Part shown: positions 3 to 55,540 of the stretch, in pieces
How the letters are laid out: each line of letters starts with the position of its first letter
How positions within the stretch are numbered: the stretch's first letter is position 1
Sequence record: MN850590.1
Direction: 5' to 3' (one strand)
Source: Escherichia phage moha
DNA: 64,000 bases
Program-made: the position numbers and the translations under genes
Notes under the pieces: generated by a model
Told to the model about the DNA's origin: nothing
The model's input: only the letters and a program-made list of their open reading frames with translations
The model's database searches: none

Positions 3-449
3 GAAGCAAATAATTGTGTATTTGATGCTAATGTTATTGGTGATAATACTGCGGAAGGTTATGTTCTGAAGCCTTGTTTCCCTAAATGGCTGCCAAACGG
101 TACTCGTGTAGCTATTAAGTGCAAGAACTCTAAATTCAGTGAAAAGAAAAAGTCTGATAAGCCTATTAAAACTCAGGTTCCATTAACCGAAATTGACAAA
201 AACTTGCTTGATGTTCTAGCTTGTTATGTTACATTAAATCGTGTTAATAATGTTATTTCTAAGATTGGGGATGTAACGCCAAAAGATTTTGGCAAAGTGA
301 TGGGATTGACTGTTCAAGATATTCTGGAAGAAACTTCTCGTGAAGGTATTGTATTAACATCATCTGATAATCCGAATCTTGTTAAGAAAGAATTAGTCCG
401 AATGGTGCAAGATGTTCTGCGTCCTGCATGGATTGAATTAGTATCATAA
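3..449 (+). CDS. rnlB: RNA ligase 2-like protein, C-terminal part (5' end lies outside the window)
   Basis: Open frame runs from the window edge to the stop at 449; convergent with gene 24 and separated from it by a bidirectional hairpin terminator; the position matches T4 gene 24.1/rnlB. Identity assigned from memory and synteny. Confidence 0.5.
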
Positions 450-451
450 CG

Positions 452-479
452 AAAAAGGGGACCTTACGGTCCCTTTTTT
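452..479. terminator. bidirectional rho-independent terminator between rnlB and gene 24
   Basis: aaaaa-GGGGACC-ttac-GGTCCC-tttttt; A-run upstream and T-run downstream allow termination on both strands. Confidence 0.75.
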
Positions 480-1761
480 ATTCATCAATGATAATTTTTG
501 GTAGCTTAACACCTAATAAAACAGACAAGTCTGAACGTCCTGCCATTTTATCCATGTCCCCACCATCAATTATTCTCGCTTCTTTTTCATCTTTTGCTAC
601 TGTGTAAGGATTTGCTGATAAAGCATATCTAACCAATAATCCGATAGACGGTTGCAAGCTTTCTGGATCAACTACAACTTTAAATGCACCAACATGTTCC
701 GGGTCATCTAAATCTACTCCTTCAGTGTATGGAGCATAAAAGATGGACCCTACAATTTCTTTTTCGCCGATATTTTCTACAACACCCACAATAACATAAT
801 CTAATGGACTGTTGGTATCGCAGTAAAGAGGTAATCCATTTGCCAAGAATCCATAAGCATTTTGTGAAAGATACTTGTCATCTTCTGGCTTATGTTTTAA
901 CCAACCGGAAGCAGCAAGAATAGCAGCTGCACGAGCTGAGGCCACACAAAACGTTGCAGTATAAGTTGTCTCTTTTTGAATGTGTGATACCATTTCACAC
1001 ACCATTCGATATAACGAACGACCTGCTTCTGGAGCGGATGCATAGCTCAAGTCAATAAATCCGGTGTCAGTAATTCCTGTAACTTTATAACGTTTCGATA
1101 CAGTAATTAAAGACTGAAGAATATCTTTATTAATTTCATCAGCCATTTCAGTAGCAAGTAAATCTTCTAAGAAGTTAGGGGCATCAAATCCATTCGCTTC
1201 CAAATCTTGCGCTAATTCAACCGTGAGGCCAGTTTTAAGTTTACGAGATTTGACTGAAGTTTGCCATTTATTAATCTGGAATCTTGCATCAGAAATTTCG
1301 CTATCAGAGCTTTCAAATTTGCTTGTTACCGCTGCATCTGAAAATAACCGTACCTTTAAATGAACGACTGCAATCTGAAGAGCTAATTCTAGATCACTTT
1401 CTTGAATATCTGCAAATGGTGTATCTTCTAACACTTTATAGACGATATTATTATATTTGAAAAAATCACCTTTATTTAGTGTGACTTTTGATTCTTCTGT
1501 GAGTTCAGTAATTTTTTCTCGGTCTACATATCCAACTTCGCCAGCATAAGTAGCACCAGTTTTAAATGTAAATTCATTATCTGGGTTAAGATATTTGATA
1601 CCATAAAAAGCAGCAACAGGTTGATTAGTTCTTTGTGTTGCTACAATGTCAGAATATACTAATTTAGTCGTAGCGCGAGTCAAAGCAACGAGATTTGGGC
1701 GACCAATTGAGTTGCTAGTAGACGTTGTAGATTCACGCAATAATTTTTGGATTTTACTCAT
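478..1761 (-). CDS. 24: capsid vertex protein gp24
   Basis: 427-aa ORF, same length as T4 gp24; lies immediately downstream of gene 23 in T4 order. Confidence 0.93.
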   Translation of the reverse strand: MSKIQKLLRESTTSTSNSIGRPNLVALTRATTKLVYSDIVATQRTNQPVAAFYGIKYLNPDNEFTFKTGATYAGEVGYVDREKITELTEESKVTLNKGDFFKYNNIVYKVLEDTPFADIQESDLELALQIAVVHLKVRLFSDAAVTSKFESSDSEISDARFQINKWQTSVKSRKLKTGLTVELAQDLEANGFDAPNFLEDLLATEMADEINKDILQSLITVSKRYKVTGITDTGFIDLSYASAPEAGRSLYRMVCEMVSHIQKETTYTATFCVASARAAAILAASGWLKHKPEDDKYLSQNAYGFLANGLPLYCDTNSPLDYVIVGVVENIGEKEIVGSIFYAPYTEGVDLDDPEHVGAFKVVVDPESLQPSIGLLVRYALSANPYTVAKDEKEARIIDGGDMDKMAGRSDLSVLLGVKLPKIIIDE

Positions 1762-36116: not shown

Positions 36117-36191
36117 GGCCCTGTAGCTCAATGGGAGAGCTGTCAGCTCATAACTGATAGGTAGCTGGATCGAAACCAGCCAGGGTCACCA
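36117..36191 (+). tRNA. tRNA with CAT anticodon (Met, or Ile2 if C34 is lysidinylated)
   Basis: Manual fold: acceptor GGCCCTG/CAGGGTC, D-stem GCTC/GAGC, anticodon stem GTCAG/CTGAT with loop CT-CAT-AA, T-stem GCTGG/CCAGC, discriminator A and encoded CCA. Confidence 0.8.
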
Positions 36192-36194
36192 ATC

Positions 36195-36271
<77 letters not shown>

Positions 36272-52686: not shown

Positions 52687-52914
52687 CAAAACAAATGGAG
52701 AACAAAATGAAACTTTTGCTTATCGCTTATGTTGTAGTACAATACAATTATCCGATGTTTACGTATAACATGGTAAATGGTGTAATGAATCTTATTGAAG
52801 CGAGTATGGTAAAATGACCTGTGAAATGGATCTTATTTAATTTTTATAGAAATCAGGTTGATGCTCGTCAGAATGATTTGGTGAATTTTGTTGAAACTTT
52901 AATTGGTGAATAAT

Positions 52915-53445
52915 ATGAAAACTGTAATTGAAACGACTGAGTTGTTTGGTGATTTATGTATCGAAAAACGTGGTTATGCGTACGTTCTGACGCAAGAAGA
53001 TGATGTTGTTACTATTCTTCCTATGGAACTAGACAAGATTTTGAAACTCAATCCACCCGGTCATGCATCTGTAATTAACATTGATGAAGACCTTCAAGTT
53101 CGTTTTTATCACGGACTTTATAGTGGGGTTAATATCGAAACCGAAGATGAATGTTTTTCTATTAATAATTGGAAAACATTTGTCACTAAGGTGAAAGAAT
53201 TCATGGAATCTGAAACAGCCAAAAAGGCCAAACTTCAATGGGCTAAATGCCGTAATGCTTTTATTACAAATCAGGAACGCCCTGACTATACAACAGTCCT
53301 GGGAGTTAATCCTTCTTATGAAGACGGTGATGTCGTAGTTATTCGCCAAATTGATGACCTTCGTCAACATATCATTACATTAGACAAAGATGAGGCAGTT
53401 GCTCTTAAAGCTTATCTCGATTCTATTATCCCAACTTTGAAATAA
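52915..53445 (+). CDS. hypothetical protein (176 aa)
   Basis: ORF after a GGTGA Shine-Dalgarno. Confidence 0.5.
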   Translation: MKTVIETTELFGDLCIEKRGYAYVLTQEDDVVTILPMELDKILKLNPPGHASVINIDEDLQVRFYHGLYSGVNIETEDECFSINNWKTFVTKVKEFMESETAKKAKLQWAKCRNAFITNQERPDYTTVLGVNPSYEDGDVVVIRQIDDLRQHIITLDKDEAVALKAYLDSIIPTLK

Positions 53446-53454
53446 GGAATTATT

Positions 53455-53928
53455 ATGATTATCAATGAAAACTCTTGGCACTTTAAAATTTATGCCGCGT
53501 TCAATAGTACATGGAATCGTCCGAAAACGTTGTGTGCTTATTTTTGGAAAACGTTAATCCCGGTATTGTCTGTTTCAATTATTGGATTTGCGATTTTAGC
53601 AGCAGTCACAATCATTGGCCATGAAATTTTAACTAAATTCTTTGTTTTTAGCAGTCTATGGACATTAGTTCCAGCATCAATTGGTGTAGGCATTTTAATG
53701 GTAGCAGTCATGGCTTTTATTTCTACCGGGTTGGTAATTGGCCCGTCTTGGTTGTTAGACAAATATAACGACAGAAAATATTATAAAGAAATTGAGCTCA
53801 TTGCACAAAACCAAGAACGAATTAAAAATGGACTTGAGCCTATTGAACGTAAGAAATCATTAATAGGCGAATACCTTAAAGCTCGTAAAGAAAAAGTCTG
53901 TCCTACTCTTGAATATAAGGCTAAATGA
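53455..53928 (+). CDS. hypothetical membrane protein (157 aa)
   Basis: Multiple hydrophobic segments. Confidence 0.55.
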   Translation: MIINENSWHFKIYAAFNSTWNRPKTLCAYFWKTLIPVLSVSIIGFAILAAVTIIGHEILTKFFVFSSLWTLVPASIGVGILMVAVMAFISTGLVIGPSWLLDKYNDRKYYKEIELIAQNQERIKNGLEPIERKKSLIGEYLKARKEKVCPTLEYKAK

Positions 53929-54914
53929 TGAAAACAATTGTGAAAACTTATTTTGGTAGCCACCTTTATGGAACGTCTACCCCAGAATCTGACGTTGATT
54001 TTAAAGAAATTTATGTCCCTCATGCTCGTGATATCTTGACCGGTAACGTTAAAGAACACATGAGCAAGAACACGAATAACACATCTTCTAAGAACACAAA
54101 AGACGACGTGGACCATGAGTTGTATAGTCTCAAATATTTCTTTAAACTAGCTGCGGATGGTGAAACCGTCGCATTAGATATGCTTCACACTCCACAAAGT
54201 CTAGTAGTTAAATCTGATTTGCCTGATGTATGGAAGTATATTCAAGATAACAGGTCTCGTTTCTATACCACTAACATGAAATCTTATTTAGGGTATGTCC
54301 GTAAGCAAGCTTCTAAATACGGTGTCAAGGGTTCTCGACTGGCTGTTCTTCGTCAAGCCCTTAAACGTTCTAATGAATGGGGACAATACTTTGATAATGG
54401 TGCAGTAATTCGTTTATCACATATGAAGAATGTTCTGCCTGTAGGTGAATTTGCTTCGTGGGTTGAAACAGAAAACGAGAAAACAGGTAAGCAAACATTC
54501 TATAATCTGTTAGACCGTAAATTCCAAGATACGTTAACCAATAAAGAGTTCAATGCCATCCTGGTTAAACTGGAAGAGAACTACGGTGAACGTGCTCGTA
54601 AGGCAGAAGCCAACGAAGGTATTGACTGGAAAGCATTGAGTCATGCATGTCGTGGTGGACTTCAACTATTGGAAATTTACAAAACCGGCGACCTGGTTTA
54701 CCCACTTCAGGATGCTCCATTTATTCTCGATGTTAAGCTTGGTAAACATACGTTTAAAACTGTACAAGAATTCCTAGAAGATATCGTTGACCAAGTTGAA
54801 CAAGCATCAGAACAAGCCGCTAAGAACGGTATGCAACAAAAAGTAGATATGAGTTTCTGGGATGATTTCCTTGAGCAAGTCTATCTCGAAAATCATAATT
54901 CTTACTATAAATAA
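53925..54914 (+). CDS. nucleotidyltransferase-fold (Pol-beta superfamily) protein (329 aa)
   Basis: N-terminal YFGSHLYGTSTPESDVDF matches the hG[GS]x(9-13)Dh[DE] nucleotidyltransferase signature; ATGA overlap with the upstream gene. Confidence 0.55.
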   Translation: MMKTIVKTYFGSHLYGTSTPESDVDFKEIYVPHARDILTGNVKEHMSKNTNNTSSKNTKDDVDHELYSLKYFFKLAADGETVALDMLHTPQSLVVKSDLPDVWKYIQDNRSRFYTTNMKSYLGYVRKQASKYGVKGSRLAVLRQALKRSNEWGQYFDNGAVIRLSHMKNVLPVGEFASWVETENEKTGKQTFYNLLDRKFQDTLTNKEFNAILVKLEENYGERARKAEANEGIDWKALSHACRGGLQLLEIYKTGDLVYPLQDAPFILDVKLGKHTFKTVQEFLEDIVDQVEQASEQAAKNGMQQKVDMSFWDDFLEQVYLENHNSYYK

Positions 54915-54945: not shown

Positions 54946-55212
54946 ATGAAAAAATTAGTAATTGGTTTATTCGCAGTAATGATGGCATTCTCTGTTGGTG
55001 CTACCACAGGTGCAGGAGCTGGTGGTAACCAGTCTTCTGGGCCTTCCAATGGTTCGGTAAATGCATCACATTCTCAGGGTATTGAGAACATTAAATCAAG
55101 CTATATTAATAGCACGGCCGGACAAGCAACTGAAGCATGGTCAAAGGGTCGAGTAGTTACTCGCTCCGTATTCTGTGATATGCCTAATTATGTTGCTAAG
55201 TGCGATAAGTAA
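54946..55212 (+). CDS. secreted glycine/serine-rich small protein (88 aa)
   Basis: Signal peptide and a C-terminal cysteine pair; followed by a terminator. Confidence 0.55.
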   Translation: MKKLVIGLFAVMMAFSVGATTGAGAGGNQSSGPSNGSVNASHSQGIENIKSSYINSTAGQATEAWSKGRVVTRSVFCDMPNYVAKCDK

Positions 55213-55216
55213 ATGT

Positions 55217-55238
55217 GGGGACCTTCGGGTCCCTTTAG
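55217..55238 (+). terminator. rho-independent terminator
   Basis: GGGGACC-ttcg-GGTCCC followed by TTT. Confidence 0.65.
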
Positions 55239-55263
55239 GGGGTTAAAATATTTAAAAAAGTAG

Positions 55264-55290
55264 TGTACATGCTTTTAGGATATGATACTA
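55264..55290 (+). promoter_or_regulatory. early-type promoter (-35 variant TGTACA, TG-a-TACTAT)
   Basis: Followed by the TAGACCTATCAAAACAAGAGGAG leader. Confidence 0.5.
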
Positions 55291-55321
55291 TAGACCTATC
55301 AAAACAAGAGGAGAAAACAAA

Positions 55322-55540
55322 ATGAAAACCAAAATGTTAGAAATGATTCGTGAAGCAGGTGATAAAGGTCTTATGGTTAACACTCGTGATGCAGACCAAC
55401 GTCAAGCATTCGGTGAACTGAAAGCTAAAGGTCTAGTTAAAGCATCCTTAGGAATAGGTAATGCATTACGAGTCACCTTAACCCCAGCCGGTAAAGCAGT
55501 GTTCTTTCAACCTCTTACCAAAAAATCTCGTCGCAAATAA
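55322..55540 (+). CDS. small basic protein, possible winged-helix DNA binder (72 aa)
   Basis: Sits between its own promoter and the next promoter; helix-turn-helix-like GELKAKGLVKASLG. Confidence 0.45.
   Translation: MKTKMLEMIREAGDKGLMVNTRDADQRQAFGELKAKGLVKASLGIGNALRVTLTPAGKAVFFQPLTKKSRRK

Follow-up and report, generated by a model that had tools for sequence, protein, structure and literature searches.

Bacteriophage T4 provided the first RNA-repair system to be described, in which Pnk and RNA ligase counter the PrrC anticodon nuclease. It has been proposed that nucleases of the RloC type, which take out the wobble nucleotide as well, defeat this Pnk/ligase repair. Here we analyse a gene that may belong to this contest, the orthologue of T4 nrdC.11 carried by a 64,000-nucleotide stretch of Escherichia phage moha (sequence record MN850590.1; the whole stretch is hereafter the window). 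Its product is a nucleotidyltransferase (NTase) of the RlaP family, for which the restoration of nucleotides at RNA 3' ends during phage tRNA repair appears to be the most likely role, a reading that we hold with moderate confidence on the strength of its characterised relatives. RlaP was named by Burroughs and Aravind for its linkage to RNA ligase genes (via PMC7824862). As recounted there, RlaP is predicted to restore nucleotides lost from broken RNA before ligation, for example the wobble base excised by RloC, and its distribution in jumbo phages is said to mirror that of RNA ligases (PMC7824862).

The first biochemical data on the family come from a bioRxiv preprint of 30 December 2025, which characterised the RlaP proteins of P. 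fluorescens and P. aeruginosa (PfRlaP and PaRlaP; PMC12776372). Both proteins label RNA, and neither DNA nor protein; they require a 3'-OH, to which they add one or two nucleoside monophosphates (NMP, or dNMP) with little specificity for the nucleoside triphosphate (NTP), prefer Mn2+ or Co2+ as the metal, and favour the 5' half of a cleaved-tRNA mimic (PMC12776372). The preprint also reports that RlaP partly rescued the aminoacylation of a repaired tRNA-Asp that lacked one anticodon-loop nucleotide, that, in total E. coli RNA, PfRlaP labelled tRNAs of full length as well as RNAs of rRNA size, and that the PfRlaP crystal structure consists of an NTase domain and a helical domain forming a cleft, with the last helix packed back on the NTase domain (PMC12776372). 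In the sequence similarity network (SSN) presented there for PF10127, the canonical proteins PfRlaP and PaRlaP belong to cluster 1a and T4 NrdC.11 is placed in the RlaP family as part of cluster 5, its function being given as not known (PMC12776372).

The window derives from a Mosigvirus-like T-even coliphage, and the 3.3 kb surrounding the gene shows 96-97% DNA identity to phages such as vB_Eco_F27, vB_EcoM_G2469 and Shigella phage phi25-307. The gene is the open reading frame (ORF) of 329 amino acids (aa) at 53925..54914 on the plus strand (N-terminal sequence MMKTIVKTYFGSHLYGTSTPESDVDF), as an earlier note made from the sequence alone had described it. Its start overlaps the stop codon of an upstream membrane-protein ORF, to which the note had described it as translationally coupled: the ATG shares bases with the TGA of the 157-aa ORF at 53455..53928 (gct aaA TGA TGa; gctaaATGATGaaa). 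A second in-frame ATG at 53928 would give a protein of 328 aa and is the start chosen in many public annotations of homologues. Over its full length the protein is 78.6% identical to T4 NrdC.11 (gene nrdC.11, also tk.-11), which marks the two as orthologues, and both genes occupy a common region, with tk and rI upstream and nrdC.10 downstream. Proteins 98-100% identical to the window NTase are present in public databases, where the gene is recorded variously as 'nucleotidyltransferase', 'RNA repair pathway DNA polymerase beta family protein', 'hypothetical protein' or 'thioredoxin'. The last of these names, found in many GenBank and UniRef records, is wrong, since the protein is an NTase without a thioredoxin match; it looks to have been propagated from the locus label nrdC.11, nrdC being the T4 thioredoxin. 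The gene is thus a well-catalogued nrdC.11 orthologue that is already included in Pfam RlaP, and as such is known and presents no new concept.

Relatives of NrdC.11 were found by tblastn in 1519 phage records, including Tevenvirinae and other Straboviridae, phages of Aeromonas, Acinetobacter and Vibrio, Caulobacter phage Cr30, Sinorhizobium phage phiM7 and Rheinheimera phage Barba19A. An exhaustive HMMER search of 1.84 billion cluster representatives returned 3306 clusters at E <= 1e-3, with 765 at E <= 1e-30. Because relatives occur in so many phage records and in 3306 clusters at 50% identity, the ORF is a genuine conserved gene and no chance ORF. Conservation was judged from the 50%-identity representatives, a word-indexed search having given only proteins at least 98% identical.

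The earlier note had recognised a Pol-beta-type NTase in the N-terminal sequence, and profile searches returned significant matches to this effect. The sole significant Pfam family was RlaP (PF10127; E 7e-13, 49.3 bits against a gathering cutoff of 23), matched by residues 4-138 over profile positions 20-145 of 249, and the same family was matched independently by 101 of 102 diverse homologues (34-52% identical to the query). PHROG 388, 'nucleotidyltransferase', was matched along the full length (E 8e-126). The run F10-G11-S12-x10-D23-V24-D25-F26 fits the signature hG[GS]x(9-13)Dh[DE]h exactly. Conservation extends to the catalytic acids, with D23 and D25 present in each of the 102 homologues and position 63 acidic in all of them. 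Neither of the two outcomes named in the note as refuting its reading was thus seen. Invariant in this alignment are G11, S22, D23, D25, Y132, K236, R243 and G273; S12, G16, N57, D61, D63, D85, R223, H240 and others are conserved in more than 90% of the sequences.

A third acidic residue could also be located. Sequence and structural model together point to D63 as most probably the third catalytic carboxylate: it is always acidic, fits the h[DE]h pattern and lies in a predicted strand (residues 62-68). D85 was weighed as a candidate for this position and dropped, being part of a predicted helix (81-87). When we aligned the clade by hhalign with canonical RlaP, represented by nine proteins some 255 aa long (95% probability, E 1.8e-8, residues 3-91), D23 and D25 fell in register with the canonical invariants D37 and D39, D63 with D73, and D85 with E95. 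The window protein and canonical RlaP belong to one Pfam family in which the hG[GS], DxD and hDh residues, and the acid at D85 (E95), align. On these grounds the window protein is very probably an active RlaP-family NTase.

An AlphaFold2 model built from the 102-sequence alignment (mean predicted local distance difference test, pLDDT, 93.8; predicted template-modelling score, pTM, 0.83) opens with an alpha/beta NTase core at the N terminus. A long helix (119-155) comes next, then a small three-stranded insert (177-201) and, after this, five helices of at least 8 residues and a short final helix, the end helices covering residues 309-328. The protein thus has a Pol-beta NTase active site that is intact (G11-S12, D23, D25 and D63), joined to a conserved, mainly helical C-terminal domain, and in the model it appears to share with canonical RlaP a two-part plan of NTase domain followed by helical domain. 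By analogy with the published description of the PfRlaP structure, the clade-invariant residues Y132, K236, R243 and G273, together with R223 and H240, probably line an RNA/NTP cleft. In Foldseek searches against the PDB, all of the higher-probability matches were Pol-beta NTases (kanamycin nucleotidyltransferase (KNTase)/ANT(4'), 3c18, HalB, LinB, Tam41, AadA and MNT), with E values of at least 2e-3; searches against BFVD returned phage and giant-virus NTases, among them full-length matches such as Barba19A (template-modelling score, TM, ~0.7), and phage NTases of 234-287 aa that superpose with target-normalised TM of ~0.5-0.7. Sequence and profile searches of the PDB gave nothing meaningful, the PfRlaP structure evidently not being among the entries searched. 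The assignment of an NTase fold to the modelled protein appears sound, although the PDB as searched holds no close solved structure.

To place the NrdC.11 clade in its genomic setting, we sampled 80 bacterial or archaeal and 79 viral loci encoding NrdC.11-type proteins, called and clustered their ORFs, and probed them with profile hidden Markov models (HMMs) and with T4 Pnk, Rnl1 and Rnl2. Cellular members of the clade sit inside RNA-repair operons. An RNA-repair-type gene was found within 8 kb at 26 of the 80 cellular loci, the types being canonical RlaP, RtcB, RtcA, Ro60/Y-RNA (YrlA), Pnkp/Hen1, T4-like Pnk and Rnl1; cellular members of the NrdC.11 and canonical types are alike in associating genomically with RNA ligase or repair genes. 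RtcB (416 bits) is present at seven loci. For a single-copy gene in a genome of 4 Mb, the chance of lying inside a given 16-kb interval is about 0.4%, so that RtcB would be expected by chance at ~0.3 of 72 loci, an order-of-magnitude estimate to be set against the seven observed. Ro60/TROVE is encoded at four loci, directly upstream of the NTase gene in three and two genes upstream in one, and RtcA, Hen1, bacterial Pnkp, T4-like Pnk and Rnl1-like ligases are present at others.

Canonical RlaP is itself one of these neighbours. A full-length canonical RlaP (Pfam 175 bits) is encoded at 12 bacterial loci (L014, L026, L032, L033, L039, L044, L054, L063, L064, L073, L079 and L083), on the same strand as the NrdC.11-type gene in 11 and no more than 50 bp downstream of it in nine. 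This tandem arrangement suggests a division of labour or a complex between the two proteins; the portions of the RlaP literature available to us hold no mention of the two paralogues standing side by side. At the Nitrosospira locus L033 the gene order is Rsr, YrlA Y-RNA, RtcB, RtcA, NrdC.11-type NTase, canonical RlaP, Hen1, a MoxR-like AAA ATPase, several ORFs and Pnkp (ligase domain 619 bits). This island is very dense, and combines the Rsr/RtcB and Pnkp/Hen1 systems. Locus L013 is a contig of 4 kb that was binned with a metagenome-assembled genome of Bathyarchaeota; a single strand of it encodes, in this order, an NrdC.11-type protein, an NT5C-like protein, a Pnk with kinase and HAD phosphatase domains (E 8e-49 to T4 PseT), a 143-aa ORF and an Rnl1-like ligase.

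Turning to phages, an RNA ligase gene lies 3.3 kb upstream of the NrdC.11-type gene in Sinorhizobium phage phiM7, in Rheinheimera phage Barba19A the gene comes after a CCA-adding enzyme gene with one hydrolase gene intervening, and the window itself begins within a homologue of rnlB, the gene for RNA ligase 2 (Rnl2), so that this phage has at least one RNA ligase that could seal NTase-extended ends. The segment of T4 from nrdC.11 to mobD.3 is among the large fragments lost in genome-reduced T4 mutants (PMC9825161); nrdC.11 is therefore dispensable in laboratory hosts. Such a loss is as expected of a conditional counter-defence gene.

In light of these data, we propose a pathway in which a RloC-type host anticodon nuclease would cut a tRNA and trim one nucleotide, phage Pnk would heal the ends, NrdC.11 would put back the missing nucleotide or nucleotides, and the phage 5'-phosphate RNA ligases Rnl1 and Rnl2 would reseal the molecule. 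Extrapolating from the two canonical RlaP enzymes, the reaction would be an untemplated extension, with Mn2+, of the 3'-OH of broken RNAs by one or two nucleotides, and the preferred substrate would be the 5' half of a tRNA cleaved at the anticodon. Ligases of the T4 type require 3'-OH and 5'-phosphate ends and should therefore suit the RlaP product better than RtcB does; that RtcB is poorly suited to this product is a difficulty raised in the preprint (PMC12776372). The parts of this proposal differ in strength. That NrdC.11 acts on RNA 3' ends is probable by analogy with the canonical enzymes, and is somewhat surer than the repair role as a whole; the specific role in tRNA repair against RloC approaches, at its best, an even prospect.

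Several observations weigh against this proposal. It draws on the biochemistry of PfRlaP and PaRlaP and not on that of any protein of the NrdC.11 clade, and the source of that biochemistry is an unreviewed preprint whose authors call the in vivo role a proposal (PMC12776372). The two types of protein are alignable in sequence over the first ~90-140 residues only (~90 by hhalign, ~135 in the Pfam alignment); the remaining C-terminal two-thirds, where the choice of substrate should be decided, gave no sequence match to canonical RlaP by hhalign, and the bit scores of the window protein are 474 on the clade HMM as against 20.5 on the canonical-RlaP HMM. The window protein is also ~75 residues longer (329 versus ~255 aa), with a conserved K-N-T-x-D-D before D63, the beta insert at 177-201 and an invariant C-terminal set of its own (Y132, R223, K236, H240 and R243). 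Where both types are encoded together they are probably not interchangeable, which suggests activities that are related but differ. Among the cellular loci, 54 of 80 have no recognised repair neighbour; the genes beside these are mixed (radical SAM, methyltransferase, RecQ-like helicase, sliding clamp), and no alternative recurrent partner was found among them. In this phage nrdC.11 is not adjacent to pnk or ligase genes, the nearest ligase gene of the window being the rnlB fragment some 53 kb away. The genus-level counts of Rnl1 and Pnk in Straboviridae nearly equal those of NrdC.11, a co-occurrence that is supportive but is confounded by shared T4-like ancestry and does not amount to independent evidence.

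The NrdC.11 clade may be a functionally distinct second type of RlaP. We tentatively suggest, while thinking it rather doubtful as a whole, that in bacteria this type is the partner of the canonical RlaP encoded downstream, for example in a heteromer or through complementary nucleotide or substrate preferences, and that in phages it is the third enzyme of the T4-like Pnk/Rnl tRNA repair, overcoming wobble excision of the RloC type. If NrdC.11 does restore the nucleotide, an arms-race loop would be closed in a model phage, and the fact that T4-like phages can do without this near-core gene in laboratory hosts would be accounted for. As a prediction, the anti-RloC idea has been published before, and the basic chemistry of the family has just been reported; what is added here is the clade-specific context, namely the tandem with canonical RlaP and the islands of Rsr/RtcB and Pnkp/Hen1 genes.

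The end of the tRNA on which such an enzyme would act could be another. NrdC.11 might maintain CCA ends, adding nucleotides to the acceptor ends of trimmed or immature tRNAs of phage or host, much as a class II CCA-adding enzyme (PF01743) extends RNA at the 3' end by a few nucleotides without a template. In Barba19A (L006, 1747-4400) a class II CCA-adding enzyme, a hydrolase and the NrdC.11-type NTase are encoded consecutively on one strand, a trio that may form a compact tRNA-end repair cassette and that places the NTase gene two genes downstream of the CCA-adding enzyme; the window phage, moreover, encodes tRNAs of its own, and the labelling of full-length tRNAs and rRNA-sized RNAs by PfRlaP attests a loose specificity (PMC12776372). 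CCA-adding enzymes, however, form another Pol-beta family with a fixed product and acceptor-end specificity, and the window protein has no profile match to them, PF01743 being absent from its Pfam list even at E up to 10. The recurrent cellular partners of the clade (RtcB, RtcA, Pnkp/Hen1, Pnk and Rnl1) handle internal breaks, and canonical RlaP, given a cleaved tRNA, favours its 5' half over the acceptor-bearing 3' half (PMC12776372). For these reasons we regard CCA maintenance as unlikely.

A broader activity on RNA 3' ends, in which short tails would mark transcripts for decay or stabilise them in the course of host takeover, seems to us less likely again. It would sit well with a family of RNA 3'-end NTases whose canonical members have little NTP or RNA specificity, and with the position of the gene in a non-essential region of T4 that genome-reduced mutants lose. 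The cellular context of the clade, however, is specifically that of RNA repair, and canonical RlaP halts after one or two nucleotides (PMC12776372).

Two further readings depart from RNA altogether, and both are highly improbable. One is a signalling or anti-defence NTase that makes HalB-like oligodeoxyadenylate or cyclic nucleotides, or serves as a decoy against host immune signalling. Hailong HalB (PDB 9dbh/9dbj), an anti-phage NTase that synthesises oligodeoxyadenylate, was indeed among the Foldseek matches, but at 16% identity, over the core only, without a common C-terminal domain and without a HalA-like partner, which is a resemblance of fold and not family membership; the likeness, confined to the core that NTases have in common, does not exceed that to KNTase or 3c18. 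PADLOC-DB gave no match at E up to 1 (a 2023 library that may predate Hailong), Pfam gave no match to CD-NTase or related families, and no signalling-system partner recurred among the 159 loci. The other is nucleotidylation of a small molecule, in the manner of ANT/KNTase or LinB, with an antibiotic-like compound or a metabolite as acceptor. KNTase/ANT(4') and LinB are the top Foldseek matches in the PDB, KNTase over ~318 columns, yet these matches are very weak (E at least 2e-3, TM ~0.3, 8-10% identity; 8-12% for KNTase/ANT(4') taken with 3c18), the enzymes have small-molecule acceptors and no link to RNA repair, and the family matched is RlaP and no ANT family. Canonical RlaP labels RNA only (PMC12776372), such an enzyme would be of no obvious use to a phage, and no recurrent metabolic partner was found.

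An AbiEii/MNT-type toxin or antitoxin NTase is effectively refuted by the family tests, and we give it next to no credence: beyond a minimal NTase core and an MNT chain far down the Foldseek list (E 0.18), there was no AbiEii (PF08843) match, an NTP_transf_2 match below its cutoff (E 0.099, 13.5 bits against 21), no PADLOC match and no adjacent HEPN or AbiEi partner in the window or related loci, and the 329-aa protein with its large conserved C-terminal domain is unlike MNT (~100-150 aa). Of the candidate roles listed in the earlier note, modification of nucleic-acid or tRNA ends is therefore the one favoured, while the AbiEii/MNT toxin and second-messenger readings gained no support from the PADLOC and Pfam scans.

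The earlier note had also drawn attention to a neighbourhood of membrane and secreted proteins. The gene order is as it described, but this order carries no functional clue, as it is confined to T-even relatives and is seen at none of the bacterial loci. The membrane-protein gene lies within 10 kb of the NTase gene in 35 of 37 viral loci whose NTases are 60-90% identical to that of the window, in seven of 28 at 45-60% identity and in one of 11 below 45%; together with the nrdC.10-like ATPase gene, it was found at none of the 80 cellular loci. Tevenvirinae keep the nrdC.10-like ATPase gene close to nrdC.11, as do Acinetobacter phages (61% identity), but it is not near more distant homologues. 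As tk and rI fall off with NTase divergence in much the same way as the membrane-protein gene does, these neighbours represent plain synteny. The co-occurrence of the membrane-protein and nrdC.10-like genes with the NTase came down to T-even synteny alone, and both proteins were ruled out as functional partners, their co-occurrence with the NTase ending where this synteny ends. No flanking gene is a credible obligate partner of nrdC.11.

Comparison with T4 leads to the same picture, the flanks of nrdC.11 differing by insertion or deletion between the two phages. T4 has no membrane-protein gene near nrdC.11 and has the HNH homing endonuclease gene mobD upstream in its place, with nrdC.10 directly downstream, whereas the window phage has the start-overlapping membrane-protein gene on one side and two small ORFs before nrdC.10 on the other. 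The ATGA overlap is accordingly limited to this phage lineage, and neither small ORF (88 and 72 aa) has a T4 counterpart within 6 kb (T4 locus L002). Directly upstream of the membrane-protein gene sits a y05I-like gene. A scan of 51.5-57.2 kb for promoters and terminators gave no more sites than shuffled sequence did. The features discussed are collected in Table 1.

Table 1. Features of the nrdC.11 orthologue, of the window and of the L033 repair locus. Positions are those of the window, except in the last two rows, which are numbered within L033.
Feature	Position	Strand	Remarks
nrdC.11 orthologue, RlaP-family (PF10127) nucleotidyltransferase gene	53925..54914	+	329-aa ORF
ATGA start/stop overlap with upstream membrane-protein ORF (53455-53928)	53925..53928	+	Seen in the sequence
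N-terminal Pol-beta-type NTase domain (~residues 1-115), predicted	53925..54269	+
G11-S12 of hG[GS] motif	53955..53960	+	G11 102/102, S12 101/102
D23-V24-D25, DxD metal-binding carboxylates	53991..53999	+	Both Asp 102/102; codons gac/gat
D63, probable third catalytic carboxylate (V-D-H, h[DE]h)	54111..54113	+	101 Asp and 1 Glu of 102
D85, further conserved acid in helix after NTase core	54177..54179	+	98 Asp, 1 Glu, 2 Asn, 1 Ala
C-terminal mainly helical domain (~residues 119-329), predicted, with three-stranded insert (177-201)	54279..54911	+	AlphaFold2 secondary structure
y05I-like protein	52903-53445	+	Matches Pfam T4_y05I_N and T4_y05I_C ('putative transcription factor'); 47% identity with T4 MobD.1
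PHROG 944 'membrane protein', 157 aa	53455-53928	+	PHROG match
88-aa protein, signal-peptide-like N-terminus	54946-55212		Downstream of nrdC.11 orthologue
Two small ORFs (88 aa and 72 aa)	54946-55540		Between nrdC.11 orthologue and nrdC.10
nrdC.10 orthologue, 333 aa	55589-56590	+	Walker A GAAGIGKT; PHROG 1250; weak AAA_22 and HTH_37 matches
rnlB (RNA ligase 2, Rnl2) homologue, partial at window start	3-446	+	phmmer E 1.4e-75 to T4 rnlB
427-aa ORF, position of T4 gene 24	478-1761	-	Adjoins rnlB homologue
tRNA-Met(CAT) and tRNA-Arg(TCT), adjacent phage tRNA genes	36117-36271	+
RNA-repair island of L033	3558-16629
YrlA of L033	5398-5509		Rfam 80 bits, gathering score 69

At three of the bacterial loci (L050, 6660-8945; L042, 1915-3261; L074, 7620-8984) the ORF that contains the NTase is much longer, at 448-761 aa, and the 447-aa N-terminal part of the L050 ORF had no Pfam match; these may be fusions or artefacts of a simple ORF caller. 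The two tRNA genes of the window, fewer than the eight of T4, bear on the tRNA-centred arms race with host anticodon nucleases.

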